A DNA stretch of 61,000 nucleotides, filler included, from Hausera hauseri (taxonomy: Eukaryota), in NCBI GenBank assembly GCA_046269625.1. It is 8 parts of 8 records of this genome, joined end to end, with 100 filler letters (N's around TTAATTAATTAA, not from the genome) between each part and the next. Parts side by side here need not be neighbours in the genome. Positions count along the whole stretch, not along the records: positions 45,483 to 55,967 come from JBJURY010178861.1; 7 more parts are not named here. The stretch is one strand, 5' to 3'. The position numbers and the translations under genes are program-made. The notes beneath the pieces are model-generated. The model saw only the letters and a list, made by a program, of their open reading frames with translations, ran no database searches and was not told the origin of the DNA. Below are positions 13,736-59,724 of the stretch, piece after piece (the stretch's first letter is position 1; each line of letters begins with the position of its first letter).

Positions 13736-13764
13736 AGTGGCGGGGCAGATTTATTACTAAATAG

Positions 13765-15745: not shown

Positions 15746-15756
15746 CTTGATATTCA

Positions 15757-19850: not shown

Positions 19851-20002
19851 CCAACTTGATTCACTTTTCCGGTGGCTAATATCCGTTGTTGTCAAATTAC
19901 TTAACATATCATCAAGTCTATTACTATTACTGGTCCGTTTGTCTTCTTCTTTTCAAATAGTCTTGACCAAGTTACTTCGTGGGGCAGTTTCCTCGCCGCT
20001 CT

Positions 20003-23400: not shown

Positions 23401-23604
23401 TCATATTCAATTTCAGGTTCTGCTAAACCATGGTATACTTCTTAAAATCTTAGCTTATCTCCATATTCTCTTCTAGCCATCAAAATTTGTGGGTTAATAG
23501 TCTCAGGTTGAGTATCTAGAAATTTTCGTAAGTCTTGTATGTCGATAATAGTACCTGCTCTCCGCGAATACCATACATAGCCTTTCAATTCTCATTAACT
23601 TTAA

Positions 23605-24595: not shown

Positions 24596-24695
24596 NNNNN
24601 NNNNNNNNNNNNNNNNNNNNNNNNNNNNNNNNNNNNNNNTTAATTAATTAANNNNNNNNNNNNNNNNNNNNNNNNNNNNNNNNNNNNNNNNNNNN

Positions 24696-28206: not shown

Positions 28207-28935
28207 TCAATGTCGGATTATTATTCTTATAATCCACATGCTTTCCAATTTACCTCGCCATTGCTTTTCATGGTAAGCTTTAATAAATTTACCAAGAGGA
28301 GAAAATAGAGCACCAATTATGCTCAAAGATAATCCTGTCAGATTGTAAATTTCATAAGCGTTTAATATTAAATTGATACAAACTTTCAGAGTTTGTAGAA
28401 TAAAGTAAATAGCCAGAAATCCGGAAGCTACTAGCCCAAATGTTAGAAATCCACCCCACATTTTGTGCCATAAACGGGAAACTATTTTTGTATAAGCACC
28501 GAGCGTCCACAATCGATTCTATTTTCCTTCTCCAGCAGAATCATCGATTACTCTATGTATTCCTCTGTTTACTACCTGCTCTTGTTGTCTCGGATATGCC
28601 AGAAATTTTACAAGTGAGTCAATTTCTTTCTTGCTATACAATGCTGACTTTGATATATCAGTAAACACATTCGTTTCGATAGAATGTCTGAGGTTAGTCA
28701 TAGTTCATTTTTTGGCTGTTTCTTTACTCTATGTCTATCAGGTAGTCTGACCCTTAAGTCTTGGTTATCGTATTTGATAAATGGCTTGTTCAGTGCTGTA
28801 CAGTTTTGAATTTCCTTTGATATTGTATGTGGCGTCAACAATACTCTAGTTATTGGCTGAACATATCGAATTTCGTCTTTATACTTAACCAGTATTTCTG
28901 AATAACATGGAGTACCTGTAACTAATGGTAAATCC
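28207..28935 (-). pseudogene. C-terminal part of a chuvirus-like glycoprotein with membrane anchors, immediately upstream of protease-pol
   Basis: PCYSEILVKY..RYVQPITRVL..NC; SALYSKKEIDSLVKFLAYP; MWGGFLTFGLVASGFLAIYFILQTLKVCINLILNAYEIYNLTGLSLSIIGALFSPL. Overlapping ORF pieces 27851..28237 and 27348..27893 follow and lead into the protease. Confidence 0.72.
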
Positions 28936-32410: not shown

Positions 32411-32574
32411 CATGTTACCACTGAGTTTCTGGGATTTGGTCATGTTGGGTTTTTTACACAGTCAGCATTCGGCTTTTGTTTGAGAGACTTTTATTTAAAA
32501 CTTTTCATCGATTCACTATGCCTCATCAAAAGTTTTGACTGATTTCTGTTGATATTATTGTGACTTCTGTCGTA

Positions 32575-34889: not shown

Positions 34890-37800
34890 CACCATTGTTG
34901 ATTTGGTAAAGAATTTTGATTGTCCATAAATAAATCCTTTTGTTTGATTATGGCAAACAACATTATAAATATCATTTAAAAAATCAATTCAAAGATCAAA
35001 CTTTTGTATGAAACTGTGCCAAACAATTAAAACAATGTGGTACACGAAACCGTTAAAAGTTAATAAAATTGGGCACCACGATGAGGCAAAAACGACGGAA
35101 GTGCGCCAGTTTTTCGACAATTAAAAATACAAATAACAATGAAAGAGAAAACAATAACATTGTATTTACAAGTCAAAAAAATCAAAGTACGGCCCCTGTT
35201 GGGCACATCACCCCTCGTGGCAACGAAACGACTATACAGGTAAGATAATAGGAAACGTAGAAACGGTGTAGGCTGTCTAAGTGGCTTTTGTATGAATAAG
35301 ACGTTGTATTCCTGCGGTGTTAATCTCCTTACTGTAGGTACTAAATGTGACGGATTTGTGATTTTTCAATGTCTTTGAATCAGATTGCAGAGGTGATAGA
35401 GGTAAAACAATGTCGGATTCCGTCGTTGAGAGTGGTGTCATTCAGAGACGAAAAAGGAGCTGGAGGGGGAGATGTAGGAGAAAAGGAAGTAAAGGGTGGA
35501 AAGTTAGTAGTAGGGGAGTTTGGATTAGGTTCTGGTAAAGGAGTAGGTGTAGGGTTTTGAATGGAAAGGGGTGCAGGGGTTGGAGGAACTGAAAGGGGAA
35601 AAGGCAGAGGAGTCAGAAGGGGTCTAGAAGATTCAATTTGGGGGGGGTATCGTCTACGAAAAAGGCAGGCTTGACGTTGTTGATATGCACCGCTAGTTCT
35701 TTACCGTCTTTAGAAATAATGGCATTGTGGGATTGCAATTGGACGAGTTTGTAAGGCCCCAAATAACGTGGCTGAAAACCGCATGGTGTCTGCTTTCTCA
35801 GCCAAACAAACTTTGCAGAATATAAATCGTCGGGTAGGTACGTTTTGTTATGTATTATTCTGCAGCATGAATCTTTGCTGACAGACAATGATTCTGTGCC
35901 GTTCGGATAGCTTCATCTGTAGGTGTATCTTCCAATGCTGTAAGCTCAAGTAATGAACGTACGGGTGCTCCGAATAGGACTTCTGTAGGTGAACAACCTG
36001 TAGAAGTTGAAGGAGTGTTTCGCCAACCCAATAGAACTAACGGAAGAAGAGTAGTCCAACTACTATTGGATTCAGTGAGGATTCTCAGTGACGTTTTTAG
36101 TGTTCTATGGAATCTCTAGAAGACCATTCGATTGGGGTGATACGGTGTTGTGTGTATATGGCTGATTCCTAATCGGCTAACGAGTGATTTAAACAAGTTG
36201 GACTCAAACTGAGTGACTTGGTCTGTAATAATGAACCTAAGGGATCCAAACCTGCTGATCCAAGTGCGTATGAAAACATCGTCTATGGTCTCTGTGTTAG
36301 TGTTCCGCAGAGGGACAGCTTCTGGCCACTGGAGGAACGATCCATCATGGTCAAAATAAACTGATGACCGTTGTCAGGAGGAAGAGGACCAACAAGATCT
36401 ATATGTACGGACTCGAAACGCGATGTGCAAGGGAAATGATATAGCGGTGGCTTCAAATGCTTGATGGTTTTAAATTTTTGATAGGCCACACATTTTTTAA
36501 CCCACGCTTGCACATCAGAGCGCATAGATGGCCAGATAATCTGTCGGTGAAGCAAGCGAAAGGTGGCTTTAACACCGGGGTGGTGTAGTTAATGTACGCT
36601 GAAGAATGCCTGTTTTTGCAACCAGGAGCTAAGATTATTTTAGACTCCCGGTTTAGACATGTCGAAAGCTACGCTGTCAATGGTGTTGTAGGATCGAAAA
36701 GATTTAAGCATGTCCGAAGGTGGTTGGTTTTCTTGCAGTTGATCTTGTGAAAATAGGCTTAAAATTAATGGAGCTAACGGATCTGGAAAGAGTCGGCGAC
36801 TAAGTTATTTACACCGTTAATGTGTTTGATCTCGAAATTGAACGTCGACGAGTATGAGATTTGTCGTTCCTCCCGAGATGATGGGCGTTTCATTGTCATT
36901 ATATTGATTAAAGGCTTGTGGTCGGTCTGTATGGTAAAGTGGAGAGCAGTATGTAGATGGGAGAAATGTTTTAATGCGAGAACTATGGCCAATAGCTCTC
37001 GGTCAAACGTTGAGTACCTAGTTTCAGGAGGTGTTATCTTGCGTGAGAAAAACTCCAAAGGCTGGTTCCCTCCTTTATGGAGTTGATGAAGTACGGTGGT
37101 GGAGGCGTCTGTAGTGAGGATCAGCTGTGCATCATCCTTGGGGAAAGCTAATATTTCGAGTTCTTAAACCTTCTCTTAGCTTTTCGAATTTGTTTACTAG
37201 TTCAGGAGTCCATAGTATGGTGTTTTTTTGCTGGTGTTTTTTTTCCACTACTGAGGTGAGCAAATGGTGCGGTAAGTTCGGAGCAGTACGGAGCATACTT
37301 GTGAACGAAGTGCAAGGTGCCCCAAAAAAACTCCTCATTTCTGTTGTTGTACGAGGTAACTGCACGATTTTTAGGGCTTCAACTCGATCGGGTTGAGGCG
37401 AGTGGCCTTTAGAAGAAATAATGTGGCCAAGGAAATTTATACGCTTCTGGAAGTGACATTTGGCGAAATTAATCTGCAGGTTATTCTGGTGTAAACGTTG
37501 AAAGATTGATCTGATGTGTTCTTTGTGTTGTTGGGTTGAAGAAGAAACAATCAATGTCATCGATATGGGGATGAGCATATGGAAAATCAGAAAGAATAGC
37601 ATCGATGTGGCGTTGAAGGCTGCGCAGCATTCGTAGGCCGAAAGGCATGTACAGATATTCATAAAGGCCAAAAGGAGTAGTGACGGCTGTTTTTTCCATA
37701 TCCTCAGGTGCCACAGGAATTTGGTGGTAGGCTTTGGATAAATCAATGATAGAATACATTGTAGTGGAATTGAGACGGTAAGATATCCTTTATGAGTGGC

Positions 37801-39800
37801 AGCGGGTATGTATCCATTATGGTCAGTGTTCAACTTGCGATAATCGCCACATGGTCTAAAAGTTCCATCCTTTTGCACGGCATGCAATGGCGACGACCAT
37901 GGGGATTTGGAGCGATGTACAATGCCGGAGCGTTCGAGGTCTAGAAATTCGGCTTCAACGGCCTGTCTACGACGATGAGACGATGGACGCACTTTCTGGC
38001 AGATAAGTCTCTGATGTTGTGTTATAATGTGGTGAAAAGTGGTATTTTCTTGTATAAAGGACCAGTCTTTTTGAATAATTCTAGAACAAGATACCTTGAT
38101 GAATTTCTGAAGACTTTCATGTAATTGTGAAAAGTTTGGTGGGAGCGAGGTTTTACCAGGAACTGTGGTATCAGTAACAGTAGCAATTTGGGCGTTATTC
38201 GGTGATGTAAAATGAAGTGGTATACGATGCAGGATTGTAGTATTGAAGATGGTATTGTAGCTGTTTGTTTTATCTAATGATTTGGCAGTATTAACGGAAT
38301 CACGCTCATCACCGTGCAAACTCCAATCGTCAGTAATAGTGTTCTTTAGTAATTTATAAAACAAGATACCATGATTGTAAGAAAAAGGTTTGTTCAACGG
38401 TTTTTTTAATATCGGCTTTCGAGTAGCATTCACCCGTACGACAGCCGAAATGGTATCGGCGTGATCGATTACCTCCTTATTGCAACCACTTGTTAAGCAA
38501 CGTTGTTTGCAGTCGACAAGATTATAGTGCGAAAGAAAGTCGGATCCTAAAATGACGTTTGCAATGGTAAATGTCCAGTGAAACATTGAAGTAAATGTCG
38601 GAAGGGTAAAAGAAAGCCTGCATGTACCGGAAACGTGTTGCGGTTGTCCTGAAGCGGTAAATAGAGGTTTATATTTGGATGAAGTATGTTGAGTTGGAAA
38701 GGTGAGCGGCAGTAACGAAATCGCTGCACCTGAATCGATAAGGAAGTCTGTGTTGGGGCGTCGGGGCTGTGGTAGAGGCTTGTAATGTGAACACTGCAAA
38801 AGAAATCTTTCGGCTATTAGATAGTGAAGAATTGCCTTCGTCAATGCTTGCCGAAAGCTCTGGCAGCGAAGTTAGTTTTTTGAAAGAGGAGAACCAGGGT
38901 GGCTGTTAGAGGCAAAGGTTGCGTGTCCGTCATTTGCACGATAGGGTTTGCTCTCAAAAGTGCAACCTGAAATGCATCTGCGTGCATTATGTCTGAATTT
39001 TGCAAGATATATACAAATGACGTTGTCTGTACGATATTTCTGGGTATAAAATTTGCACCTTAGGTGGCATTTTTGTGCTTTATTATCAAACCTACCGTGA
39101 TAATAGCAAATCTATAAACGTCCGGATGAAGGTGACCGACCATGTGATGCAGGACGGTTACGGTCAGTGACGAGACCTTCGTTGTCAGAGAAATTTCATT
39201 TAATCTATTATTAATATTATTAATTGTTGTTTCTAAAGTCGTATTTTTAGCCCGTAGTTGGTTTAATTGATGTTCGAATGCTGTATTATTGATGCTAACG
39301 GCTGCAGAAATGATTGGCTGTGCATGTAGGTTCAGGACTTTATGTTTTATCTGCTAGTTCGGCCAATTTGTCAAGAGTTGTCGATGCTTCGGCGACGATA
39401 AGTAATGCTCTGATCTGGATGGGCAATGTGTTTAGGAAGTAGCGTCGTAAGAGGTCGGCATTATGTTGTTTAGTAACGCCGAGAGTTTGCAGTTGAGCAA
39501 GAGAGGTTCTGAGGAAATTAGATGGTTTCTGCGTTCCCATGGCATTGTCATTAAAAAATCGGTGGATAATGGAATCCATAGATGGTTCCGTAAGTTTAGT
39601 ACTGCGTTGTAGAAGTGTTTTTATGGATCAAATTGTTGGAATATATCTAACAGATCATGAATAGATGTTTTTACTGCAGTCGGTAAGAGATAAAGTAAGC
39701 TATGGGCTTTGGCTGATGGATCAGTAATGTTGTTATACTGCAGTCAAAGTTTGTGAAAGTTAAGCCAGGTTTTGCTGGACTTTTTATGGTCAATAAAGTA
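34890..39800 (-). mobile_element. Degraded Ty3/Gypsy LTR retrotransposon (gag, PR, RT, RH, IN, probable 3' LTR)
   Basis: gag MGTQKPSNFLR..LDKLAELAD; FLIDSGA; SKSPWSSPLH, RPCGDYRKLN, IDLSKAYHQIP, MPFGL, HIDD; ETRYSTFDRELLAI, TDHKPL; VHIDLVGPLP, QPRYLGPYK. A purine tract followed by TG lies near 35207-35217. Confidence 0.92.
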
Positions 39801-45482: not shown

Positions 45483-46247
45483 TGGCGATCCCTGGCCAGT
45501 TACCTAGAAAAAAAAATGCCGAAAAAGCAGTTAACGCCTAAAATAGGCAATACAAAATTAAGCCTACCAGGAATTCTACGTTAACTTTTCTTTTTGAAGC
45601 AAATTAACCCTGATCATTGAATTTTATATCATCAAAATTTTATTCTCCATAACTGCTAGGGGACTTCTAAAAGGATTTTATCTTTATTTTTAAAATATCT
45701 TATTCATATATTTATAAATATTTATGAAATAACGAAATTTTACTAATCCTAAATTCAAGCAATTATACTTAAGTTATGGAGAATCTATCTAGTTTGAACC
45801 AATAATTCTTGATGAAAAAACAATTTGATTATTATGGTTACTCACGATGATGATCGTTCGGATGACTACCGTATTTTCTTTGTATTGGAAGTTTTTTTTT
45901 TTAAATTCATAAATATTCCTTCATTAACCATGAGCCATCATTATTCACGTTATTTACATATCAATTAATAATAATTATTTTAATTAAAATTTTTTTAATC
46001 AACATAAAAAAAGAAAAAAAGAGATTTAGCAACATATCAAGGATACTTATAATAAATATAATAAATATAATAATAAATAATATTTATAAATGAACATAAT
46101 AAAATAATAATAAATAACAATTATAAACCTTCTCTTAGAATTCTTATGTTCGACCAAAGAGACCATCAATACTTTATCCAAGGCCAGTCGTGTTTTTGAG
46201 AGCGGAGGTGGAGACATATAATTGTCTGACCCAGGCTGACCATCACA
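45483..46247 (-). repeat. 3' LTR of the intact Gypsy element (truncated by the spacer)
   Basis: Begins TGTGATGG at 46247, directly after the PPT. 45483-45955 closely matches 55493-55967. Confidence 0.9.
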
Positions 46248-46260
46248 CTCCTCCCCACCC
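46248..46260 (-). promoter_or_regulatory. Polypurine tract
   Basis: Minus-strand GGGTGGGGAGGAG immediately before the LTR TG. Confidence 0.85.
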
Positions 46261-46344
46261 GTCGTAACCCGACGGAAAAGGTCTCCATGCACAGCAAGCC
46301 GAGTCGGAACAATTCTACCTATTTACAAAAAACAACAAAAAAAA

Positions 46345-48042
46345 CTACTGTCTCCACATCTCCCAAAGGTACTGGTCGATTTCGCCAGGTGCGGGGGCAT
46401 AATTGAAAGCTGCCATATAACCCCTTACTTGGGCCGCCGCGAGATCCATTTCTCTGTGGATGTTCGCACGGATCATGGCGGATGCCATACCGGGAGGTGG
46501 TAAGCGTGGCATCCCCCTTAAAGGTGGCATCCCATGAGGAACCGGTGATAGTTGGGGACCACGGATCATTCCCCTACGCCATGGGTATGTTGAAAACCCC
46601 GGAGACCCACTATCAACTTCCATCCTCCGTGGGTTCCAATAAGGGCGTACCGCTCGAGATCCCGGTCCTCTCACGTTGGGACGACCCCTTTGATTCCTTT
46701 CTCGCCCCATCGGCTGCATAGGCGAAGCTGAAGTCGGCGGAACACAGTCCAGTCCCAGACGAGATTGCAACGATGAAGGGCGAGCCCCGGCAAATCGGAC
46801 CCTTTGTGTCGCTCTGCCCCGCAAAGCGGGTGACGTGCTATTCACCCCCAGTCGGTCCTGAAGAGATGAGGGGCGAGGACCACTAGGCCGAGCAGTTGGA
46901 GCAGCTTCGGCCGATGAGACAGGAGTCTCACAGGACATCCCCAGTCTCTCGTGTACCTTACGACCCTGACCCGATGTTGGAAGTTTCCCAGTGGCCACTA
47001 CCGGACGAGGAATCTTCTTGGTTCCCCTCCGTGTAATCTTCCCCTTGGTTCTGGAGAGGGAAGCCCCACTTGACGGAATGTTCACACCCGATGGTCCGGG
47101 GAGTGAAACATCCGCCTCCGGTTCGTCGATTGGGGCTGTGGCACTGGTACTAGCCGATGTCGACGACTCCGACTTCGGACTAGCTTTAGCACTAGGGTAT
47201 ATTATCCTAGATTTGATTGGTGCTTTGGTCTTGGGTATCACAGGCTTTGGTTTGACCCCACGGGTTTTGTTCTTAAAACCAGTGGGGGAGTCGGACAAAC
47301 GTCTCCTTAAATAAAGCCAGAAAGAACGGCAGGTTCTTCCGGTCGGATGTACTCCGTCCGATAGATAACCTCCCTCGCCTATGGTTTGACAACCACCGGC
47401 GAGGAAGCCATCCATCCGATGACGTTGAGGACGGAGTCTCCCAATAACCTGTGCGCCCAACAACTTTTCATATTCGCTTATAGACCCCGTAAACAGTTCT
47501 GACTGTGGGTCTATAATTTCTAGGTATCTCTTGATTGTTGCTAAGTAGAGCTTTGATGGTTCAAATGCCGGGTCCTCACGATATTTTCGTCTTATTGACT
47601 CCGGTGCATCTCTAACCATAAGCTCGTTCTTATACACTAAGTCAAGAGGTGGAGGTAGAAAAAGGAAAACCTTAGCTTGCGGAGCTATTAATTTGACTCT
47701 TGACTTAAAGGTGTAATAATGATGGATGAAGGTGTCAAGATGAAAGTCAGGATTGGGAATTATGGCGAAATAACTTCGTTTGTCATCGGGGCCGCTAAGG
47801 TTGAATTTCTTGAAGGCTTCCGTGATTAGCGTGAATAACACTACATGAGTAGTGTCTTCAGCCAAATCCCCCGGGAGGTAAGTAATAAGTTGCGTCAAGC
47901 GAGCTCCCGGGTAAGAAGCAAACTCAACTTTGGCCTCCGGAATTCCCAAATCCTTAACATTGAATGTTTTCTCAAGGGTTGTTACCCAAGAGTGTCCCAC
48001 AATCAAAAGCTGGAACAGATAATAATAATAGAAATCAGGCAT
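46345..48042 (-). CDS. ORF3: SGNH/GDSL-hydrolase-like domain plus long basic, disordered R/G/P-rich tail
   Basis: LLIVGHSW (block I), SYPGARL (block II), HVVLF, KVFLFLPPP, YLSDGVHPT (block V). The C-terminal ~300 aa are low-complexity with SSLQ.RLG repeats. No TM segment. Confidence 0.75.
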   Translation of the reverse strand: MPDFYYYYLFQLLIVGHSWVTTLEKTFNVKDLGIPEAKVEFASYPGARLTQLITYLPGDLAEDTTHVVLFTLITEAFKKFNLSGPDDKRSYFAIIPNPDFHLDTFIHHYYTFKSRVKLIAPQAKVFLFLPPPLDLVYKNELMVRDAPESIRRKYREDPAFEPSKLYLATIKRYLEIIDPQSELFTGSISEYEKLLGAQVIGRLRPQRHRMDGFLAGGCQTIGEGGYLSDGVHPTGRTCRSFWLYLRRRLSDSPTGFKNKTRGVKPKPVIPKTKAPIKSRIIYPSAKASPKSESSTSASTSATAPIDEPEADVSLPGPSGVNIPSSGASLSRTKGKITRRGTKKIPRPVVATGKLPTSGQGRKVHERLGMSCETPVSSAEAAPTARPSGPRPSSLQDRLGVNSTSPALRGRATQRVRFAGARPSSLQSRLGLDCVPPTSASPMQPMGRERNQRGRPNVRGPGSRAVRPYWNPRRMEVDSGSPGFSTYPWRRGMIRGPQLSPVPHGMPPLRGMPRLPPPGMASAMIRANIHREMDLAAAQVRGYMAAFNYAPAPGEIDQYLWEMWRQ

Positions 48043-48101
48043 GGTTTCTTAAGACATTCATCTTGACTATTTCACTATAATTCAATTTCCTTTGTTCCCA
48101 G

Positions 48102-51100
48102 TTAACTCCGCCGTTTCCGCTCGAGGATGTGAGTTTGAACATTAGGCAAATCCACACACGACCCTCGAGAACGTGTGAAAGGGCGAAGTTCCGCAGCAAC
48201 GTCCCTATCATTTTCATTTGAATTATTGAAATTTACATTGAGATTTTCCTCTAATAAATCAAAAGTGATACCGTCACTTGGAGGATCTACATCATTATTT
48301 AGAGAAGTCTCCAAAACAATATTGTTGGTCTCTCCATCACTAGGGAATCCCTCAAATTCCCATTCCTCTTCACTCGCATCGGTGAAACCTTCAAAATCCC
48401 ACTCCAAGGAAATAGAAGACTCTGTATCTGAATCTATGGATATGGACTGTAAGTCTACTAACTCCAAGAAACTGACTTTCTTTGTCTTTGATGAGCCTTT
48501 CCCAGACGAAAGAATGGAAGGGAAGGTGATATTATATTTCCGTAAGAAGGATGGGAGATCAGGGGAACCCCCCGATGTGGGCGTTACTGGAATCTTGCTG
48601 CTTGTACTTGAAGTGTTAAACAATGAACAAGATTTTTGGGGGCTAGTTACATCTATTGCGACAGCAGTTAACTGACTAGCAGTGCGCAATATGTTTTGAA
48701 TTTTTACAAGAGTTGCCCGTGTTTCCTCGTCTAGCGAAAAACCTTCAAAATCATCCTCATCTGGTTCAATCGACGGAGTGATATTACGAATAATGTGTTC
48801 TTCGTCGATACCTTGAACTTCCGATGGCGATGATGTAGGACTGGTTACTTCAGGAACCTCTCGCATAGCCTGAAAGTTGAATTCTTCATGTTCCTGCAAG
48901 TACTTTGGAGGAACCTGCCAACGTTTTATCTGGCTATGATGCACCCGATAAACGCGATGGTCCTGGAGCGATTTAACTTCATAAGTGACTTTATTTGGGT
49001 TTGTAGACAAGACCTTCATGGGACCCAAGTAACGTGGTTGTAACTTGTTAGTAACTAAGTCACCAGGAAGTTGACGCTTTAAACCCACTAAATCCCCAGC
49101 TTTAAAAGCGGTGAACAAAGGATGTCCAGGCTTCCAGAACGAGTCCATGTTCTGAACTGGAAGTCCAAAGAATGCCTTGTGGGCTTTTTCCATTATGCTC
49201 TCACACGGAGTTAATAATGTTTGAGCATGTTGCGTGTGATTGTAAGTAACCAGAATATGAGGTAGTTTGGTATCCCAGTTTGAACTGGTTGCCAACGATA
49301 CGCGCAAATATTGAAGCAATGTTCGATTCACACGTTCGACGATACCATTAGACGATGGTTTATAAGGAGTAGTAACTACATGTTTAATATTATATTTATC
49401 TAATAAATTTTGGAATTCACTTCCTGTGAACTCTTTACCATTGTCAGTGAGCATTCGCTCAGGTAGTTTAGGTAATGCAGGTAGTATGTAACGTTGTAAT
49501 GCTAACGCTACCGTGGCAGATTGTTTATTCCTTAAGGGAACTGCCGATACCCATTTAGAAAAATGGTCCACGAAGACCAATAAGTACTTATTACCCAAAC
49601 TAGACACTGGCAACTGCATTAAATCTACTGCAGTAAGTTCGAATGGACAATATGTAACTATTTTGAACATGGGAGGAACTATTAGCAAATTGGATAATTT
49701 GGATGACTGGCACACATGACAGGTTGTTGGAACATCATTACAAATTTTATACAATGACGGATTCCAAATATGCCTATCCAATAATGCTATCAATTTATTC
49801 CTACCCAAGTGTGCGTATTCTAAATGGCACTTAACCACCACATCTACGGCGAAGGAGAAAGGTACTACAGAAGGTACATAACCCTTTGACGTAACTTTAC
49901 TCAATGTATCATTGTAAAGTTTGTAGTCCTTTTTGAAACGCAAAAAGGATTTCATTTCCCCGTTAATATGACCAGTAATTCTGATGGGGTTTTGTAGAAA
50001 TTTAATTAGTCTGCTTATTGATTTATCGGACGATTGCGCATATCGGATTGTATCTTCCGATAGTAGGGATCCTTCAAAAGGAATTTCCTCCTCCTCTAAT
50101 TCCTCTACTCGAATGCACATCATTTCAATCACCTCAGATGCCGATTTTGATAAATCCTCCCCACCAGACTCAACTAACTCATCAATTAAAAGGTTAGGTA
50201 CGTTCCCTAATAAAGACGACTGTTCTTCCAGTGATTCATCAAGAAGATTAAAAGAAACAAAATTCCCTTCAATCTCCTGATGTAAATGTGGTTCCTGTGT
50301 TGATAAAACCTCGGAGTCTGGTGTGGTTCCTAGCAATAAATTATAATGTATACCCCCTAAACATAATAATCTGCAAAGTTTCCCACTTGTGGTTGGGCCG
50401 AATCTTAACGGTTCTCCATTGCCATAGTAAACCCAAACACGAGTTTGGTATAAAGTCGCAAAAGCTTCGATGGCTTCAGTAATAGGCATTTGACCTACTT
50501 GTTTCATCAACTGAAGTAGTTTGGTTATTCCAACATGATTTTTACCATTCAAGATGCCATATTTCTGTCTGTGGGTTATCAATTCTTGAATCACTTCTTC
50601 TCGTAGTTGTGGATGTTTATCCATGCTTCCGAATCTCCACAATGATAAGCACATAAACAGTGAGTCACCCCCTCCTGGAACCTTATGTTCAAGACAACCT
50701 GGAGGAAGTTCCATTTCTACCGGTGAAGAAAGCGTCTCGTTCGCTGACACAGGAGATCTAGATAGAGCATCGGCGACTATATTTTGTCGGCCCGGAATAT
50801 ACCGAAGCTCATAATCTATGTCATTAATCTCCTCCAGTGTCCGAGCGACCCTCTGATTTACGAGAGACATGCTGTTCAGAAACGTAAGTGGCTTATGGTC
50901 GGTGTGAATAACGACCTTAATGCCATACAAGAATGGTTTAAGTGATTTGACAGCCCACCGAATAGCTGCGACTTCTTTTTCAGTGGTGCTATATTTAACC
51001 TCAGCTTTTGACCATGTTGTGGAAATATAAGCAATTGGTTTGAGTTCTCCTTGCTGTTCCTGAGCTAGACAAGCTCCTGATCCGACATTGGAGGCATCCA

Positions 51101-53201
51101 CGAACAACATGAGCGGTGGAGCGTCAAGTTGTCGATTTGGATAAACTAACAAGGTGGGATTTATTAATTCCTTCTTCAGTTGTTCAAAGGCTATCTGGCA
51201 CTCTTGAGTCCAACTTAGGGTCCGTTTTCCCAGAATCTCAAACAATGGCTTGGCTATTTCCGAACACCGCGGTATATGCCGTCGGTAAAAATTTACCATT
51301 CCCAAAAATTGTCTAACCTTCCTAACAGTAGTAGGTATAGGGAATTCTTTAATTCCTTCAATACTTTTCTGTAATGGGATCATTCCCCGTTCCGAAACAA
51401 TGTGACCTAAATACTGAACCTCTTTCCTTAGCAAGAAGGTTTTACTTGGCTTTATTTTAAAACCTGTATTCGAGAAAGCAATCAATACCTTTTCTAGGCT
51501 CCCCAGATGCTCCTCGAAAGTCTTGCTAATAATAAGGACGTCGTCAAGGTAAACCATGACTTCCGTCCAGGGGATATGAGACAAAGCATATCTCATCCCC
51601 CGCTGAAAAGTGGCCGGTCCATTTTTCACCCCAAAGGGCATTCTCAAAAATTCCCAATGGGATAAAGGAGTGGTGAAGGCTGTCAGCTCAATGCTGTCCT
51701 CTTCCATTTCAACTTGGTAATAACCTTTGACTAGGTCCAGGGTAGAAAAATATTTTACCCCCTGCAAGCTGAAAAGCATGTCTATGAGATTGGGGATAGG
51801 GAAGCTATCTCCCTTGGTGATCTTGTTTAATTCCCTATAGTCGATACACAATCTCATAGAACCATCCTTCTTCTTAATTGGAACTACAGGAGCGGAGTAT
51901 GGGGATTTACTCCGTCTTATGATCCCTTCCGACTCCAACTTTTTGCAACTCTCCTCCACATCGCGCAAAATCGGGCCCTGCAGCCTTCGAACTGGTAACT
52001 GCACGGGGTCGTCCTGGATAATTTCAATTCGATGCTTGATGACGGAGGTACAACCTACATCACCATCGTGCAAGCTTAAGGCATTCGGATATTTCATCAA
52101 CAGAGTGCGCAACTGATCTCTCTGATCCTCTGTGATATCCGAATCCTCTAACCGAAATTCTGAAGTTAATTTATCGGCAGTCCATCCTGCTTGTTTACCA
52201 TTCTCGGGAGTCTCCGTCAACTCCACGACATTCAAAAGTGCATCCTCCGCTTCCAGGAATTCAATCTGCCCAATCTTCTGACCTCTCTTAATTTTCAAAT
52301 ATCCTGGACTCTCGTTATAAGCCAGGATAAATGCCCGATCTTCCCGAATCTGCACAATTCCAGAGGGGGAGATAAATTTGCAATTTGTGTCGCTAGAAAA
52401 TATAGGGATTTCTGTGGAATTACTTATTTTATTATTAGGGACTTCTATTTCTACTATTTTTCCCGAGTAGGGACCTAACAAAAGAGATTCAGCTAAGGAA
52501 CATTCAATATCCGACTTACTCTCGCGCCTAGTATCCCACGCTACAGTCTGGACTTTTTTCCCTGTGCGTTTCACTAATTCGCGTTCCCGCAAATCGGGTA
52601 ACAGATGTTCCCTGCTTAAAATATCAAAACCCATAATAACATCGTGATGAGTTAACTCATCCGGTATTATTATAAAGGTATGAGAGTCTAAAATGTAAGA
52701 TTCGGAAAAACGCAGTTTTAAATCTACCGCCCCTATAATAGGGTATTTTATTCTTCCTATCCCACTAATACTCACATACATTGTGGGTTTGACGGGAAAC
52801 ACATGACTATTTAACCGTTCATAACAACGGTGAGTCATCAAGCTCACGGTAGCGCCTGTATCTACAAAAGCAACGAATGATGTGCTTGGTTGATCAAGTA
52901 CATGAACATTGATCAACAACGCGTCTGTCGAAAGTGTCGAGAGTCCCAACTCAATATTAGGTTGGTCCATCGTTTCATCCGATTCGCCTGCATCAATGAC
53001 ATCCGCATCCGCAAAATTTGGCGGCGGTGCTACCGGTTTATCTTGAAAAATATCAAGATCTTCCGCTGTTATAACGGGATCCATGCTTAACAAGTCATGG
53101 ATTATAGGAATCCTTTCTTCTGATGAAGATGATGTAGATACATCATTCACCTCTTTTTCCTCTGAGTTGAGGTCTTCTAACTCAGAAGTATTCAGTTTCC
53201 C
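48102..53201 (-). CDS. pol: Pol: protease, dUTPase-like, RT, RNase H, OTU-like insert, integrase with GPY/F-like motif, acidic tail
   Basis: FVDTGA; RLCIDYRELN, LDLVKGYYQ, MPFG, YLDD; VDAS, YSTTEKE, TDHKPL, ADALSR; H..H..C..C, VDL, TDNG, NGIVER; PRYLGPM. The frame stays open upstream of the GTG to the slippery site. Confidence 0.96.
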   Translation of the reverse strand, partial: GKLNTSELEDLNSEEKEVNDVSTSSSSEERIPIIHDLLSMDPVITAEDLDIFQDKPVAPPPNFADADVIDAGESDETMDQPNIELGLSTLSTDALLINVHVLDQPSTSFVAFVDTGATVSLMTHRCYERLNSHVFPVKPTMYVSISGIGRIKYPIIGAVDLKLRFSESYILDSHTFIIIPDELTHHDVIMGFDILSREHLLPDLRERELVKRTGKKVQTVAWDTRRESKSDIECSLAESLLLGPYSGKIVEIEVPNNKISNSTEIPIFSSDTNCKFISPSGIVQIREDRAFILAYNESPGYLKIKRGQKIGQIEFLEAEDALLNVVELTETPENGKQAGWTADKLTSEFRLEDSDITEDQRDQLRTLLMKYPNALSLHDGDVGCTSVIKHRIEIIQDDPVQLPVRRLQGPILRDVEESCKKLESEGIIRRSKSPYSAPVVPIKKKDGSMRLCIDYRELNKITKGDSFPIPNLIDMLFSLQGVKYFSTLDLVKGYYQVEMEEDSIELTAFTTPLSHWEFLRMPFGVKNGPATFQRGMRYALSHIPWTEVMVYLDDVLIISKTFEEHLGSLEKVLIAFSNTGFKIKPSKTFLLRKEVQYLGHIVSERGMIPLQKSIEGIKEFPIPTTVRKVRQFLGMVNFYRRHIPRCSEIAKPLFEILGKRTLSWTQECQIAFEQLKKELINPTLLVYPNRQLDAPPLMLFVDASNVGSGACLAQEQQGELKPIAYISTTWSKAEVKYSTTEKEVAAIRWAVKSLKPFLYGIKVVIHTDHKPLTFLNSMSLVNQRVARTLEEINDIDYELRYIPGRQNIVADALSRSPVSANETLSSPVEMELPPGCLEHKVPGGGDSLFMCLSLWRFGSMDKHPQLREEVIQELITHRQKYGILNGKNHVGITKLLQLMKQVGQMPITEAIEAFATLYQTRVWVYYGNGEPLRFGPTTSGKLCRLLCLGGIHYNLLLGTTPDSEVLSTQEPHLHQEIEGNFVSFNLLDESLEEQSSLLGNVPNLLIDELVESGGEDLSKSASEVIEMMCIRVEELEEEEIPFEGSLLSEDTIRYAQSSDKSISRLIKFLQNPIRITGHINGEMKSFLRFKKDYKLYNDTLSKVTSKGYVPSVVPFSFAVDVVVKCHLEYAHLGRNKLIALLDRHIWNPSLYKICNDVPTTCHVCQSSKLSNLLIVPPMFKIVTYCPFELTAVDLMQLPVSSLGNKYLLVFVDHFSKWVSAVPLRNKQSATVALALQRYILPALPKLPERMLTDNGKEFTGSEFQNLLDKYNIKHVVTTPYKPSSNGIVERVNRTLLQYLRVSLATSSNWDTKLPHILVTYNHTQHAQTLLTPCESIMEKAHKAFFGLPVQNMDSFWKPGHPLFTAFKAGDLVGLKRQLPGDLVTNKLQPRYLGPMKVLSTNPNKVTYEVKSLQDHRVYRVHHSQIKRWQVPPKYLQEHEEFNFQAMREVPEVTSPTSSPSEVQGIDEEHIIRNITPSIEPDEDDFEGFSLDEETRATLVKIQNILRTASQLTAVAIDVTSPQKSCSLFNTSSTSSKIPVTPTSGGSPDLPSFLRKYNITFPSILSSGKGSSKTKKVSFLELVDLQSISIDSDTESSISLEWDFEGFTDASEEEWEFEGFPSDGETNNIVLETSLNNDVDPPSDGITFDLLEENLNVNFNNSNENDRDVAAELRPFTRSRGSCVDLPNVQTHILERKRRS
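53149..53201 (-). promoter_or_regulatory. -1 programmed ribosomal frameshift signal (G GGA AAC plus hairpin/pseudoknot)
   Basis: Heptamer at 53201-53195 just before the gag TGA, then a 6-nt spacer and the stem CTTCTGAGTT/AACTCAGAGG. Loop ACCTC can pair with downstream GAGGT. Pol is in the -1 frame. Confidence 0.85.
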
Positions 53202-54991
53202 TGACGCTTATCGCAATCCATCCCAAAATGCGCTCCACTACAGAAAGGGCACTTGGGTTCTTCGGGTTGTCTCGTAGGACAATCCGGAGCAAAATGTCCT
53301 TGCTCCTTACAAATCATGCATTTTCGCTGAGCAACATAACAGTCAGCATGCACATGTCCACGTTTGCCGCAAAATTGGCACAAGGGTCGTTGACGACATT
53401 GCCCCATATGGTGGCCCTTCTTCTTACAGAAGTTACATTTCTGTGGCGACTGTCCTGAACTCCTTGGTGGCGAATAAGGTGGCCTCGAAGATCTCTTCGG
53501 GGATTCACCTTGAGGCTTCGGGCTCGAAGGGGTATTCCTCTTCGGGCTTTTTGGGGCCTGCTGCTTATTAGCACTATTATTATTCTTTTTCTTATTATTA
53601 ATGGTTTGTTTTGGAGACTTAGGAGGAGACGGTGGAGCAGTCGTCCTCCTATAACTTGAATTATAATAAGTATTACTACTTTTTGGTTTTGCTCCACGCG
53701 CAACATCTGCATAAGAAGGAGCATGGCTAATGCGCTCTGGCATGGGCACTTGTTCCCTCGACCTGGGGGCGGGCATTCCCTGGCTAAGTGTAGCCTGGTA
53801 TGCCTCGGGTGGCTGAGCAGCTGATGGGTACTGTTGACCCCATCGATGTTGGCAACTGCAGTATAATGGCATGCTGCCAACGGCTGGCATCACCGTTGTT
53901 AAATCGATTACGTCGGGAGGCTGATACGGTCCCGAAGCCACATTCGAATTTGCCGTATATGGCATATTGGCGTCAACAAGGGAGATAAACTGGTCCCAAG
54001 TCATACGCACACCCATGGTCTTTTCATAGTTCCTACGTGCGTTTTCCACGTGGAACCGAATCTGTGGGGGAACACTTGCCAAGAATCTTTGCCGGACGAG
54101 GGGAAGATTCTCTACGTCACATCCTGGCAAAGCCCTTTGGGCTAATCCCAGCAAACGAATCGCGAAAACGGAGATGGGTTCATCCCGATGTCGCGTCGCG
54201 TCTAGGAAACGAATGGAGTGAGCCTCCTCCTCCCGATCCAATTCTTCGCGAGCCCATTGAAGTAGACGTTCCTTCATTTCTTCATATGAGGTGACCGAAC
54301 GTAAAGCCACCTGATATATTTGGAGAATTGGCCCCTCAAGATGTTGCCTCAGCAGCTGGAGTAGACCAACAGTATCCACTCCAGAATACGTGTCTCTGCA
54401 GAACGTCTCAAACCTTTGGAGAAACTGGTACACAGTTTCCCCGCTGTCCGGAGCATAGGTGCCCAATGGCTGGGGTCGTCTTTTTGGATTTACCGTCAGA
54501 CCCTGAATCAAATCAGCCATCTTCTGCATTAACATCTGATTCTGCTGGAACAACTCATGCACTAGATTTTGCATATCCTGACCAGCATTCACTTGAGGAT
54601 TTCCTTGAAAAGTCTGAAATGAAGGTGCGGCTGCATTAGCCATTAATAAATTGTTAGTCCCTGGCGTTTGTACGTTAGTTGTATTAGTGGTAATAGTTGT
54701 CATAGGCAAATTAAAAGATGGGAACGGGTGTGAAATCGAATAAGGGTACAGAGACGGTGCTGCGGCGGGAACGGAACTAGACGGGTTCGTCTGTGACCAA
54801 GTCATCTGTGGTACTGTTGATGTCCCCACCCCTGGCGTCAAAGTCATAAAAGTCTGTCCACTGGTCGAGTACATAGGCTCGGCCAGTGTAGTGAGAGTCT
54901 TATTCTCACATACTTCTCTCATACTCTGTCCATTAATGTCTGAAAATTCCACCCCATGTTCCCCACTAACAATCATCTTTTCCTCTTCCAT
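53192..54991 (-). CDS. gag: Gag, 599 aa, four zinc knuckles
   Basis: QFLQRFETFC, RHRDEPISVFAIRLLGLA; CNFCKKKGHHMGQC, CQFCGKRGHVHADC, CMICKEQGHFAPDC, CPFCSGAHFGMDC. Confidence 0.95.
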   Translation of the reverse strand: MEEEKMIVSGEHGVEFSDINGQSMREVCENKTLTTLAEPMYSTSGQTFMTLTPGVGTSTVPQMTWSQTNPSSSVPAAAPSLYPYSISHPFPSFNLPMTTITTNTTNVQTPGTNNLLMANAAAPSFQTFQGNPQVNAGQDMQNLVHELFQQNQMLMQKMADLIQGLTVNPKRRPQPLGTYAPDSGETVYQFLQRFETFCRDTYSGVDTVGLLQLLRQHLEGPILQIYQVALRSVTSYEEMKERLLQWAREELDREEEAHSIRFLDATRHRDEPISVFAIRLLGLAQRALPGCDVENLPLVRQRFLASVPPQIRFHVENARRNYEKTMGVRMTWDQFISLVDANMPYTANSNVASGPYQPPDVIDLTTVMPAVGSMPLYCSCQHRWGQQYPSAAQPPEAYQATLSQGMPAPRSREQVPMPERISHAPSYADVARGAKPKSSNTYYNSSYRRTTAPPSPPKSPKQTINNKKKNNNSANKQQAPKSPKRNTPSSPKPQGESPKRSSRPPYSPPRSSGQSPQKCNFCKKKGHHMGQCRQRPLCQFCGKRGHVHADCYVAQRKCMICKEQGHFAPDCPTRQPEEPKCPFCSGAHFGMDCDKRQGN

Positions 54992-55117
54992 ACTTCCCTG
55001 TAATTGATTCTACAGATAGAAAAGCGAAGAACAGAAAATAGAAAGCAGTGATACGGTGATTAATGAGCTTCAAGCTCTTTAGTTGTGCAAGTGCACCGGT
55101 AGCGAGCAGAAAACTAC

Positions 55118-55129
55118 GCTCTGCTACCA
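55118..55129 (-). promoter_or_regulatory. Primer binding site, tRNA-iMet type
   Basis: Minus-strand TGGTAGCAGAG(C), complementary to the animal initiator Met tRNA 3' end, a few nt after the LTR end CCATAATA. Confidence 0.85.
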
Positions 55130-55133
55130 ATTA

Positions 55134-55967
55134 TATTATGGTAGTGTAGAAGTAGGGCGAGAGGAAAAGGGCCCAGAGTTTCCCCCCACATGCAAATTAG
55201 TTGGTTAGTAATTTTTTCCCTCTTCTGCTACAGGTCAAATATAATGACTGTCAGTCACTACCTAATGAGGAGGTTTCTACTCTACTTTTTCGCTCACCCG
55301 TCACAACATGTAATCACTGGCAATGAGTCCTGGTACTGTGGTCACGGCAAACCAGTCCAGTTCCTGAAAAAAAAGAAACTTTATACAAAATGTACCTTCA
55401 TTTCGGCAACTTTTCAATTTGTATAGTACTTAACTGGCAAGACTTCAGGTGTCTGCTTGTCAAAAATAAGGCGAACTCGTCCAAATTTGAGAATGGAGAT
55501 CCCTGGCCAGTTACCTAAAAAAAAATACCGAAAAGGTGGCAATTAACGCCTAAAATAGGCAATACAAAATTAAGCCTACCAGGGACTCTACGTTAACTTT
55601 CCTTTTTTTTTTTAAAAGCAAATTAACCCTGATCATTGAATTTTATAATATCTTCAAAAATTTTATTCTCCATAACTGCTATGGGACTTCTAAAAAAAAG
55701 GATTTTATCTTTATTTTTAAAATATCTTATATATTTATAAATATGAAATAACGAAATTTTACTAATCCTAAATTCAAGCAATTTTACTTAAGTTATGGAG
55801 AATCTATCTAGTTTGAACCAATAATTCTTGATGAAAAGACAATTTGATTATTATGGTTACTCACGATGATGATCGTTCGGATGACTACCGTATTTTCTTT
55901 GTATTGGAATTTTTTTTTAAAAGTTCATAAATATTCCTTCACATGAGCCATCATTATTCACGTTATT
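55134..55967 (-). repeat. 5' LTR (truncated by the spacer); full LTR inferred at ~1.1 kb
   Basis: Direct repeat of 45483-45955. Ends CCATAATA, an imperfect inverted repeat of TGTGATGG, next to the PBS. Confidence 0.88.
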
Positions 55968-56479: not shown

Positions 56480-56942
56480 CCGAGGAATTAAACCAGACAA
56501 TTCCATGATATCCAAAATTACAGATATTAAAGAACCGGCTAATAGAAAGGAAGCGGAAAGCATCTTAGAATTAGTTAACTACTTCGGGAAGATGATTGCA
56601 AATTTCTCACAAAAACGCTAAATCTCAACAAACTAAGGAATTCCGAGGAAGTTTTTAAGTGGACCAAAAATGCGACGAGGAATTTAGCAATCTAAAGAAG
56701 ATATTATTGAACAGACTGTTAGTGAAGCAATACGATCCTCAGAAAATGGTTACAATTACAACCGATGCATGCACGGACTGTATTGCAGCAATAATGTCAC
56801 AAGACAACCATCCAGTAATATTCGTATCGAAAGTATTATCAAAGGCCGAAAGGAACTATTTGAATATAGAGAGCGAAGCACTAGCCATTACCTGGTCAAT
56901 CTTACGCTTTAAACAATTCTTACCGGGAAAAGAATTCGTAGT
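56480..56942 (+). mobile_element. Gypsy RT-connection/RNase H fragment
   Basis: LELVNYFGKMI.NFS, W..KCDEEF..LK, TTDAC, PVIFVSKVLSKAERNY..IESEALAI.W; truncated at 56943. Confidence 0.85.
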
Positions 56943-58045
56943 ACTGTGGTGCCCACGGAGACCGTTGCCCTTCCTCCTATTTTGGTTGGGCACGGCCGGG
57001 TGTCCGCTATCGCCGCGTCAGATCAATAGTCGGGTCCAACTCTCCGCTTTAGGAATTTAATCTGTCAAATTAGACGAGAAGATTATCGAATATCTCATTC
57101 AAAAAATTTAACATTTCAGCTATCTTTAGCAACATCGCTTCGTTCTGCGCTTCAAACACTTCAATCTCGTTCTTCATTCTCAACAAAAGACGATTTATCC
57201 GATCATCAGAAATTATCAGTGAACTGTCTTTCAGTTTATCAAATATTCGATTTACTTATTCGATTGGATGCGGTTACGCAAAATGGAGAATCAAGTAATA
57301 ACTACCGATTACAGACTTCTGACTCAACTTACACAACAAAACGGTAATTCTTATTCTCAGACGCACCATCAGAAATCCGTTTCGAAACAATTAGCTAATA
57401 GTAATCAAATTAAAGATTTAGTTAAAAGTTTACAAAAATTTTTTCATGATCAATATCCAAACAGTATCATCAATTGCTCCAATTTCTCCTTCATATTCCA
57501 AATCAAATCGAATCTCTTATTATGTGCAGATTTTATCACATTTAATAGAAACATGCCTTTTGCAGCTCTGTCCACAAACTTTAAACTCACCCAATTCCAC
57601 GTTATCTACAGGTTCGATGAAGGACAACAATCCCACTGTCGCTATTTTCAAATCGGTGAATTCCCAGTCAGAAGCCAGTAAATTGGAGCTTGACTTCCCT
57701 GTTAAAAAAGAAAAGCCAGAACCCAAGAAACCGAAATCCGTTCTTTATGATGTCGAAATGTTGAAGTATGTCATTCAGGATGTGACGAACACTTATCGCA
57801 ATCAGCTGGCAGACTATCATGAGAAAGAGGCACAAACGGAATATTACAAATTTGTCCGACTCCATTCGGTACTCTATTCTGAATTGTCGTGCAAATCAAA
57901 GAAGTTGAAAGCTCTCGTTCGCATCAGTGAAATTAACACTGAATTACTGAGACAAAATAAGGATGATCTCGAAAAACCCATTCACATGTTGGAATCAAGA
58001 CGACTGCCGAACCACTTAAAATGTGATTATTTACCGAATTCGTGA
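56943..58045 (+). mobile_element. Unknown element starting with GC-rich cassette copy B, followed by a hypothetical helical ORF (57268..58045 in two frames)
   Basis: The cassette interrupts RNase H. ORF 57446..58045 is S-rich then helical, with no recognised domain. Confidence 0.4.
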
Positions 58046-58969
58046 TTTGATAATTATCAAGATGTTTATTCTAATGCATACGTTATTTCTATCTGTATAT
58101 AACTGTGTAAATCTATGATCTCCATTATGTGCTCTCTATATCGCTGCGTTATCGCTTTGCTGTCAACGATTTTCGCCAACGATTCCTTAGCAATGCCGGA
58201 TTTACTGCCCCTTTATTTTCTGTATGTCATTGATGACATTTTAATGTGTCTATGTAAAAAAATTGTTTTTTGTTTTGTTTAAAATAATACAATTTGTAGT
58301 GCAAGTTAAACATTTTTCTATGCCATATTGCATTTTAAATTGGATTTCTACATTTTGACGAAATTGTTTTCAATCTCAATTTACGTCTTTTAAATATTCA
58401 ATGTGTTCGTTTATTAGCGGATTTGAAAGTTCTTTATGGGATTGTATTATGATTATTCCAGGGACACCGAAATTACATATTATTTATTCGATTGTTCAAT
58501 TCAATTTGACCAACTGTTTTAGTCATCGAATTTAAAACCAGGAAAAAGATTCTGTCTGCGGCAAGTTTAATCGGTGATACACTATGTGCACTTAATTTGA
58601 TTTTTGTTAAAAATGTAACAAAACAGTATCCTAATTTTGGTTGTTCAATTATAACTACTAATGGGTAGGTCCTTGGCGCTGTCGAACAATGTTATGTTGG
58701 TGAGTTTGAGGTCTGAATGCACTGGTTTCCTCTGCCATGTGATTTCGCCATTTCTAAAGATCATTGCGTCCGAAGTAAGGAGGTCCTCACGAAGAGAAAG
58801 CTCTGATAAATCACTGTTATACTCACTTGAGTTGGATGACTGAGGATGATTCATAATCGTGTCCGGTTCAAATTCAAACAATAAAGTCCCCATCATCAGA
58901 TGATGACTATTCGTAATGCAGTCTGATTTTTCAACATTTCTGACACTCGGCAAATCAACAAAACTCAAA

Positions 58970-59724
58970 TCAACACAAACATAATGTTCTTTCAAACTCA
59001 AATATGCCAATGTTACAACTTTCTCATCGGTTTTCATTTTCGTATTCAACGTTAAATCTTCTTCCTTTAATGTTTTAACCTTCAACTGGGCTGTGTTTAT
59101 GTCGATCGTTGCCGAAAATAATACAGTTTGTCGTTTTTTCGGTAGCTTTTTCACGATTGCATTCATATCAACCAAAAATCCCTGTTCCATCAATTTGTCT
59201 GCCTCATCAATAATCAGCGTATCGAGTTTGTGATATAAAAAGAATTCTGTTCTATTCATATGATCCAGAAGTCTTCCTGGTGTCGCCACAAGAATGGTAA
59301 CTCCTTCTTTTAAATATTTCGCTTCTTCACACATTACCGCTCCACCAATTACTAAGCCCACCGTTATTTCCGTGTTCTCCGTCAATTGTTGTAGTACTTT
59401 AAATATTTGACCACTCAAATCCCTTGTCGGTGAAATTATCATTGCACTGGTACCAATTCTCTAATCTGATTTCTTAGTAAACATGTTATTTATTAATCGA
59501 ACTAAAAATGCAAGTATTTTCCACTCAGTTTTTGCAACACAAAATGCATCTCTACTTTCCAGAAAATTTAGAATGCACTGAACTTGGATAGAAGACATTG
59601 ATATCATATTCATTTTAACCAGAGAAATTTCTACTCTTTTGTGCTTGTCTAACCCATCAAATTTATTATTTTTCAGAATTTTATGACCAGGTAAAACATC
59701 TTCGGTTATTTTATAGTCATACAA
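58970..59724 (-). pseudogene. DDX18: DEAD-box helicase DDX18/Has1-like, intronless, disabled and 3'-truncated
   Basis: IISPTRDL, GLVIGGA, LVATPGRLLDH, IIDEADKL..GF, LPKKRQTVLFSAT. Motif I is decayed (AKTEWKILAF), there is an in-frame TAG at 59461, and similarity ends after LKEHYVCV. Confidence 0.82.

Follow-up and report, generated by a model that had tools for sequence, protein, structure and literature searches.

Locus and third open reading frame

We analyzed a window of 61,000 nucleotides (nt; the whole stretch of DNA) from Hausera hauseri (GCA_046269625.1), in which the contig at positions 45483-55967 (JBJURY010178861.1), bounded by spacers of N's, is occupied over its whole length by a minus-strand long terminal repeat (LTR) retrotransposon. 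The element reads, in order, partial 5' LTR, primer-binding site (PBS), gag, pol, a third open reading frame (ORF3), polypurine tract (PPT) and partial 3' LTR, and it is classed here as a Ty3/Gypsy element with an SGNH-fold ORF3 that is neither a canonical SGNH enzyme nor an envelope protein (env). ORF3 (46345-48042; this and all other features of the element lie on the minus strand) encodes 565 amino acids (aa) from its ATG, within a 567-codon stop-to-stop frame, and it is separated by 59 nt from the pol stop and by 84 nt from the PPT. These spacings confirm an earlier note on this DNA, made from the sequence alone, which had described an intact 565-aa frame between pol and the PPT.

SGNH fold and active-site conservation

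When given an alignment of 15 sequences, AlphaFold returns a domain at aa 11-251 of ORF3 (47290-48012) with a predicted local distance difference test score (pLDDT) of ~95, followed by disorder over aa 252-518 and a confident hairpin at aa 519-564; single-sequence folding was poor (pLDDT 49.9), and that model was set aside. The Foldseek matches listed from PDB are nearly all SGNH/GDSL enzymes, with three designed scaffolds besides (best E = 1.7e-5), and VIA-align matches the domain to 3mil over 197 aa (Z = 15.6, root mean square deviation [rmsd] 4.6). Language-model features likewise point to SGNH/GDSL (0.93, with 140 of 256 shared, which is typical of a distant relative). On the strength of the model, aa 11-251 are confidently predicted to adopt the SGNH three-layer alpha/beta fold that the earlier note had suspected. 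Searches of Pfam, NCBIfam and PDB by sequence did not detect the ORF3 family, and ZfL2-1 (4c1b) is not among the 50 structural matches listed, a result with which similarity remains compatible.

The SGNH-like blocks that had been read from the sequence are all present (GHSW at aa 16-19, PGA at 45-47, DGVHP at 229-233), with S18, G46, D229 and H232 kept. The block III Asn, which the note had not found evident, is replaced: block III of ORF3 is LITE in place of the usual GxND, with Thr74 standing for the Asn when the block is mapped by spacing after the third strand rather than by superposed coordinates. As also noted before, ORF3 contains no transmembrane (TM) segment (best 19-residue Kyte-Doolittle mean, 1.25), and it carries neither an R-x-[KR]-R (furin) site nor a signal anchor. 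An env identity was thus rejected on the basis of the hydropathy maximum of 1.25, the missing furin site and the SGNH fold; ORF3 is an accessory gene and not an envelope.

An exhaustive phmmer search with ORF3 recovered 23 relatives, in agreement with the expectation that the frame is conserved in related elements, and the nine of them that are named all come from Armadillidium vulgare or A. nasatum. A word-indexed protein search with aa 8-255 gave no match, a search with a 19-sequence ORF3 profile gave two rows that were both already known, and scans of viral_contigs and genome_contigs yielded no ORF3-family relatives. The domain and the C-terminal hairpin are kept across relatives that are only ~25-37% identical. 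Over the 24 alignment rows, with each site scored across the rows that cover it, we observe the block I Ser in 15 of 16, the block V Asp and His in 16 of 17 each, and the block II Gly (G46 in ORF3) in 14 of 19, this Gly being missing in the P0132/P0134 group and in P0140. The block III Asn, positioned by spacing, occurs in only 2 of 22 rows, and the His is missing in P0132. Since the Asn is so rarely present, one subclade lacks the Gly and one member lacks the His, catalysis is not required family-wide.

Residues 520-810 of P0143, a gene model from Armadillidium vulgare that also has SAP and RRM domains, correspond to a divergent member of the SGNH family (profile E = 3e-32; Ser, Asp and His kept). 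We take the model to be SAFB-like, a name based on these two domains. Its SGNH part could be a real exon, the source or a domesticate of ORF3, or a misprediction.

Predicted splice acceptor, linker and motif array

At the start of ORF3 lies a predicted 3' splice site (48010-48038) made up of a branch point, an AG-free pyrimidine tract and a CAG, in phase 0, which ends just ahead of the first SGNH strand. Of the internal region's 248 YAG sites, 1 combines all three features and 14 show two of them, the features having been chosen with the 48010 site in view. Four of the ORF3 relatives are gene models in which pol pieces are fused to the SGNH domain, and in all four the junction between pol and SGNH lies only a few residues from the predicted acceptor. 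Several phase-0 donor candidates are found in gag (54970, 54913, 54592, 54493, 54310 and 54010), and we infer from these sequence features that ORF3 is probably expressed from a spliced message. The N terminus of ORF3 as read in the earlier note probably needs revision, as its first ~11 codons resemble the 3' end of an intron.

The description of the tail as long, basic, RG-rich and disordered stands in part. The linker at aa 252-518 (46489-47289) is disordered (pLDDT mostly <50) and basic in this copy (isoelectric point 11.8; 46 K+R versus 13 D+E), whereas aa 519-564 form the confident helical hairpin, and the basic RG character is not family-wide: linker net charge is +33 in this copy versus -16 to +10 in 15 relatives, and RG dipeptides number 8 versus 0-3. 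An RG-rich tail was therefore rejected as a family trait, and the basic tail lends no family-wide support to charge-based binding of RNA or lipid. The C-terminal hairpin (aa 519-565, 46348-46488; helices at 519-545 and 554-564; pLDDT ~88) is conserved in the alignment, and its profile also recovers P0125, which was outside the training set (E = 5e-5); it has no match in Atlas or Pfam.

Within the linker we find three Phi-x-x-R-L-G motifs at aa 363-368 (46939-46956), 394-399 (46846-46863) and 425-430 (46753-46770), spaced 31 aa apart, with 4 of the 31 columns invariant, namely R, L, G and one Pro. The motif Arg is encoded by three different codons, and the units are 39-44% identical to one another at the DNA level. 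The relative P0121 carries four motif copies within a distinct 48-aa repeat. A 2026 preprint names Phi-x-x-R-L-G as type 1 among the ligands of the ALYREF RRM and describes it as resembling viral ligands and as occurring in arrays (PMC13370473); ICP27 contacts ALYREF via W105, R107 and L108 (PMC6177440). The strict motif gives 7 matches in 3,353 ORF3-tail residues versus 2 in 29,445 pol-tail residues taken as a control; for the motif statistics, P0144 and P0145 were set aside as near-duplicates, P0143 as a fusion, and five rows as tail-less.

The pol clade and the patchy presence of ORF3

Between RNase H and integrase, pol contains an OTU domain in which Ser replaces the catalytic Cys (50322-50720), and a four-sequence OTU profile matches OTUD3 (E = 1.6e-8) and OTUD5 (E = 3e-4), so that the pseudo-OTU assignment made earlier is upheld. 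A search with the RNase H-OTU region found 459 relatives, the best 120 of which were used. Among the matches listed, 3 of the 103 pols that could be parsed retain the catalytic Cys (124 pols, 21 unparsed). In a midpoint-rooted reverse transcriptase (RT)-RNase H tree, built by a quick method from 113 of the 124 pols (OTU-bearing pols only; 11 dropped for short coverage), the element groups with Armadillidium proteins and two loci, L001 and L002, in a clade of 18 members (Shimodaira-Hasegawa-like approximate likelihood ratio test [SH-aLRT] 99). The two loci come from a metagenome scan in which, among the matches listed, 3 of 553 stretches were confirmed (L001, L002 and L003). Judged by this placement, the clade is associated with isopods, and an isopod is the probable host of the element. 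Among the papers listed, our search found no published OTU-bearing Gypsy pol or isopod SGNH ORF3, Repbase and GyDB being outside its scope, and PMC6338049 and PMC13524379 gave no match for OTU, esterase or SGNH.

A second aspartic protease motif, located with a simple pattern between the pseudo-OTU and the integrase, was observed in 58 of the 124 OTU-bearing pols among the matches listed (in the range P0017-P0120 and in L003:3217-8736). It marks an 85-member clade (SH-aLRT 100), with no occurrence in the 18-member clade of the element. We find no earlier account of this large set of Gypsy elements, in which pol holds a pseudo-OTU and, in many cases, a second protease after it.

The pol parts of the four fused gene models match best within the clade of the element, with P0125 and P0136 closest to P0002 (41-42%) and P0134 and P0140 closest to P0005 (89% and 53%, respectively). 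ORF3 is thus tied by fusions to at least two other pol subfamilies and to a third via P0130 and the pol P0011, both of which lie on 10,028-nt ENA contigs, a link that is suggestive only. With respect to the claim, raised for checking in the earlier note, that ORF3 always follows this pol clade, the sister loci give a different picture. The count rests on two informative loci, because L003 ends inside pol; in both L001 and L002, pol runs to the PPT without ORF3, and the profile finds no remnant (0 of 2 loci). ORF3 was therefore rejected as an obligatory part of the pol clade and, with two sister elements lacking it, is dispensable. L001, whose pol is 48.7% identical to that of the element and which shares the PBS and the PPT core, is nested in the tree among ORF3-linked subfamilies, and its 3' untranslated region (UTR)/PPT (L001:6967-7064) nearly matches the DNA encoding aa 299-331 of P0135, the end of an ORF3 model. 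Given this nesting and this match, loss of ORF3 is the simpler reading, which suggests that L001 is an ORF3-loss sister of the P0135 subfamily.

Proposed function of ORF3

We propose, with a probability of roughly 0.45, that ORF3 is a spliced, soluble and oligomeric nuclear adaptor that links unspliced element RNA to ALYREF/TREX. A donor in the leader or in early gag would be joined to the acceptor at 48010 to give an ORF3 mRNA, whose product would be a soluble nuclear protein. Its SGNH domain would serve mainly as a binding module for element RNA or for a partner, like the OSK domain of Oskar, while the C-terminal hairpin would oligomerize it and the Phi-x-x-R-L-G array would grip the ALYREF RRM, thereby loading the genomic, unspliced RNA with TREX. 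RNA so loaded would be exported, or shielded from nuclear retention, in a manner comparable to that of Cer1 CERV and herpes simplex virus (HSV) ICP27. Elements without ORF3 would also have dropped the acceptor, or would use ORF3 protein in trans. What we count in favor of the adaptor is the lack of a signal anchor, TM segment or furin site, the unique acceptor-like site and the fused gene models, as well as the motif arrays, the excess of strict and relaxed motifs in ORF3 tails, the lost oxyanion Asn, the CERV precedent and the SAP and RRM context of P0143. Judged on the sequence, these clues would favor nuclear RNA handling more than a membrane role.

Several observations weigh against such an adaptor. 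Only 2 of 17 tails contain the strict motif (P = 0.049), one or more strict copies would arise by chance in this ORF3 tail with a probability of 0.042, and copies within a protein are probably duplications and hence not independent. A relaxed form is found in 7 of 17 tails versus 1.7 expected (P = 0.0003), but the relaxed pattern was picked post hoc with the data already in view, and 10 of 17 tails contain neither form. A second class of ALYREF motif was tried and rejected, as it shows no enrichment (2 of 17 tails, P = 0.36). The tail of this copy has no clear nuclear localization signal (NLS), and the SGNH domain is near neutral in charge (31 K+R, 29 D+E). The strongly kept triad suggests chemistry or a ligand pocket, whereas OSK has lost its triad. 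L001 and L002 lack ORF3 with gag and pol intact, the SGNH part of P0143 is possibly a mispredicted exon, and the ATG at 48042 stands in a good Kozak context, so that unspliced expression is possible. Furthermore, ALYREF helps to retain unspliced RNA in C. elegans (PMC10309623), and the effect could therefore go in either direction. A narrower version, in which ORF3 would be an mRNA-export hijacker, kin to the domain in the SAFB-like model, that converged on the recruitment of ALYREF/TREX by ICP27 via tandem motifs, is put forward tentatively and may well be wrong. If true, other GDSL ORF3s, for example that of Vesta, may also handle RNA rather than act on lipids as env substitutes.

Another role to be considered is at membranes, where the SGNH domain would bind acidic phospholipids or an acyl chain and steer particles or ribonucleoproteins (RNPs) to membranes or vesicles as a stand-in for env or matrix. 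The same role has been proposed, as a hypothesis, for the ORF3 of Vesta (PMC5408684), and the position of the gene at the env site, its env-like patchy loss and the kept triad would fit with it. We nevertheless regard this role as rather unlikely: ORF3 has neither TM segment nor cleavage site, the domain is without net positive charge, whereas binding by ZfL2-1 is charge-driven (PMC3905857), the charge of the linker is not conserved, and the R-L-G arrays would be left unexplained. The Vesta authors themselves deem GDSL ORFs without a coiled coil or TM segment unlikely to be env (PMC5408684). The earlier note had read ORF3 as an adaptor replacing env and routing particles to vesicles; the lack of env features is upheld, while the membrane routing draws its support from the ZfL2-1 analogy alone.

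The kept triad could also mean that ORF3 is an active enzyme, an acyl- or acetyl-hydrolase whose oxyanion hole is unusual and whose host substrate would be an acylated protein, RNA or metabolite. Its activity would favor the element, for instance by counteracting silencing, and the enzyme would be delivered to messenger RNPs by the tail motifs; this reading is combinable with the adaptor. Conservation of Ser, Asp and His at ~25-37% overall identity speaks for it, and so does the fact that the top structural matches are active esterases (Z = 14-16, against 11.7 for OSK). Against it, 20 of 22 rows carry another residue in place of the block III Asn, which contributes to the oxyanion hole as one of its three donors (PMC10792757), 5 of 19 rows have the block II Gly replaced, and in one member the His is gone. 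With no substrate clue found, we hold a hydrolase to be quite improbable. Finally, ORF3 could be a captured host fragment carried as a passenger, or an assembly chimera, given that it is missing in both informative sister loci and that the contig, which has both its ends within LTRs, may consist of collapsed copies. A frame that stays open over 565 codons, with a domain and hairpin conserved at ~25-37% identity and linked to other pol subfamilies, makes this very improbable. There is, in addition, a small chance that ORF3 has a role outside those considered here.

Comparison with known systems

The bdelloid LTR elements of the Vesta group contain a GDSL ORF3 without a TM segment, with family-specific gain and loss and with no demonstrated activity (PMC5408684). 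A gag-pol-GDSL layout is therefore already known, and the novelty is lower than the earlier note had claimed, a described family with this layout being what the note itself had named as refuting novelty. Like the present element, Vesta1 has gag, pol and then a GDSL/SGNH ORF3 without a TM segment at the env position, and its ORF3 is gained and lost by family. Vesta1 also has a dUTPase between protease and RT, a place where the element shows a weak, degenerate dUTPase-like match. Vesta differs in that its GDSL invariant residues are intact, its LTRs measure 159-551 bp, its GPY/F motif is reduced to a proline, and no OTU is reported for it (PMC5408684), whereas here the Asn is lost, the LTRs are ~1.1 kb, pol carries a pseudo-OTU and 9 of 9 named ORF3 relatives are from isopods. 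Compared by description, the element falls outside Vesta in LTR length and in its lost Asn.

The env-position ORF of Cer1, CERV, is spliced, has an enzyme fold and is required for export of unspliced genomic RNA (PMC10309623). Like ORF3, CERV is not an envelope and has an enzyme-like fold, and its multimerization is predicted; unlike ORF3, it combines a pseudo-G domain with a Cys loop and an M domain that forms rings. CERV has no SGNH fold (the term does not occur in the text) and no reported ALYREF motif, and no homology to ORF3 is claimed. ICP27, POLDIP3, RBM26 and ZC3H13 resemble ORF3 in that a Phi-x-x-R-L-G-type motif, in many cases arrayed, lies in a disordered part of the protein (PMC6177440, PMC13370473), with Arg/Gly-rich sequence and a folded, oligomerizing part adjoining it. 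Their folded domains are unrelated, and ALYREF binding is shown for them, while for ORF3 it is predicted from sequence.

The ORF1p of ZfL2-1, grouped here with other esterases of non-LTR and Penelope elements, is likewise an SGNH-containing accessory protein of a retroelement, with a self-association helix and Arg-rich stretches (PMC3905857). It differs from ORF3 in belonging to a non-LTR element, in lying upstream of the RT gene and in retaining the full S-G-N-D-H set with N195 intact, and its esterase bound lipids and did not bind oligo-A RNA (PMC3905857). The OSK domain of Oskar (5a4a; Z = 11.7, rmsd 3.0, 160 aa) has the same SGNH fold, used there for RNA binding, though its triad is absent, while that of the ORF3 family is mostly kept. 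With respect to the OTU domain, Ginger1 transposases and Helitrons also carry one in a transposon protein (PMC2836005); these are DNA transposons, whereas here the OTU domain belongs to a Gypsy pol, where it separates RNase H from integrase and usually lacks the Cys.

What is new in the element is the likely splice acceptor at the start of the domain, the conserved C-terminal hairpin and the Phi-x-x-R-L-G motifs spaced at 31 aa. How the unspliced genomes of splicing LTR retrotransposons leave the nucleus is poorly known, CERV being the precedent that we found, and the lipid role of retroelement esterases rests on in vitro work with ZfL2-1, with activity not demonstrated for Vesta. The ORF3 family is discriminating in this respect, as it offers three defined predicted ALYREF motifs, natural sisters without ORF3 and a subclade whose active site is eroded.

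Other features of the element

The element is assigned to Ty3/Gypsy because of its Pfam order, protease, RT and RNase H followed by integrase, and further features of the group are present in two LTRs (both cut by the contig ends), a PBS, a PPT and a zinc-knuckle gag. Alignment of the 5' LTR (55130-55967; left part missing, with the N gap from 55968) to the 3' LTR (45483-46247; cut at the contig end) gives 442 matches, 13 mismatches and 36 gap columns over 491, and arithmetic from both partial ends puts the full LTR at ~1.1 kb. Since both contig ends lie inside LTRs, several members of a multicopy family may have been collapsed into the contig during assembly, and the contig gives no insertion age. 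The right end of the 5' LTR (55130-55150) does not form a clean inverted repeat with the left end of the 3' LTR, whereas the ends of L001 are. The PBS (55119-55129), which we take to be of the initiator tRNA-Met type, is also found ahead of gag in L001, and the PPT (46248-46260) has a core identical to that of L001.

The gag frame (53192-55009; ATG at 54991, 605 codons) has several C-terminal Cys/His knuckles (zf-CCHC, E = 0.0087) and is 31% identical to the gag of L001. The pol frame (48102-53207; 1701 aa) overlaps the end of gag by 16 nt, with the slippery heptamer GGGAAAC in the overlap, from which we infer that pol is probably made by -1 frameshifting. Within pol we observe the aspartic protease active-site motif DTGA (52851-52862), RT plus RNase H (50826-51878; Pfam RVT_1, E = 2e-33; RT_RNaseH, E = 3e-28) and an integrase with H2C2, DDE core, GPY/F-like motif and SH3 (48972-49856). 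The degenerate dUTPase-like domain between protease and RT (52251-52508) is weak; with a four-sequence profile, the best match is a dUTPase (E = 0.031) and dUTPases make up 4 of 5 matches, while in L002 the same region matches Herpes_ORF11 (E = 0.015). At the C terminus of pol (48102-48190), most clade members shown carry an R-P-x-T-R-S-x-G motif, often with a basic tip, which by analogy may act in chromatin tethering or as an NLS.

Other features of the window

The contigs that make up the window are 4-10 kb long and are separated by 100-nt N spacers with a six-frame-stop word (at 19043, 24596, 28936, 34329, 41000, 45383 and 55968), and neighbors are possibly unlinked. Other frameshifted Gypsy-like pieces were observed at 14151-17046 (plus strand), 19143-28935 (minus), 35951-38871 (minus) and 56665-56976 (plus). 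In the first of these, the frame at 16039-17046, past an integrase, contains a run of hydrophobic residues and could be an env-like ORF that has been broken, and a tandem repeat with a 36-nt period (13741-14059 and 16907-17871) flanks the piece and possibly lies in LTRs. A class C G protein-coupled receptor-like sequence is present at 30477-32414 (minus), with ANF_receptor, NCD3G and 7tm_3 in three offset frames, and a DEAD-box helicase fragment lies at 58645-59460 (minus; E = 5e-28).

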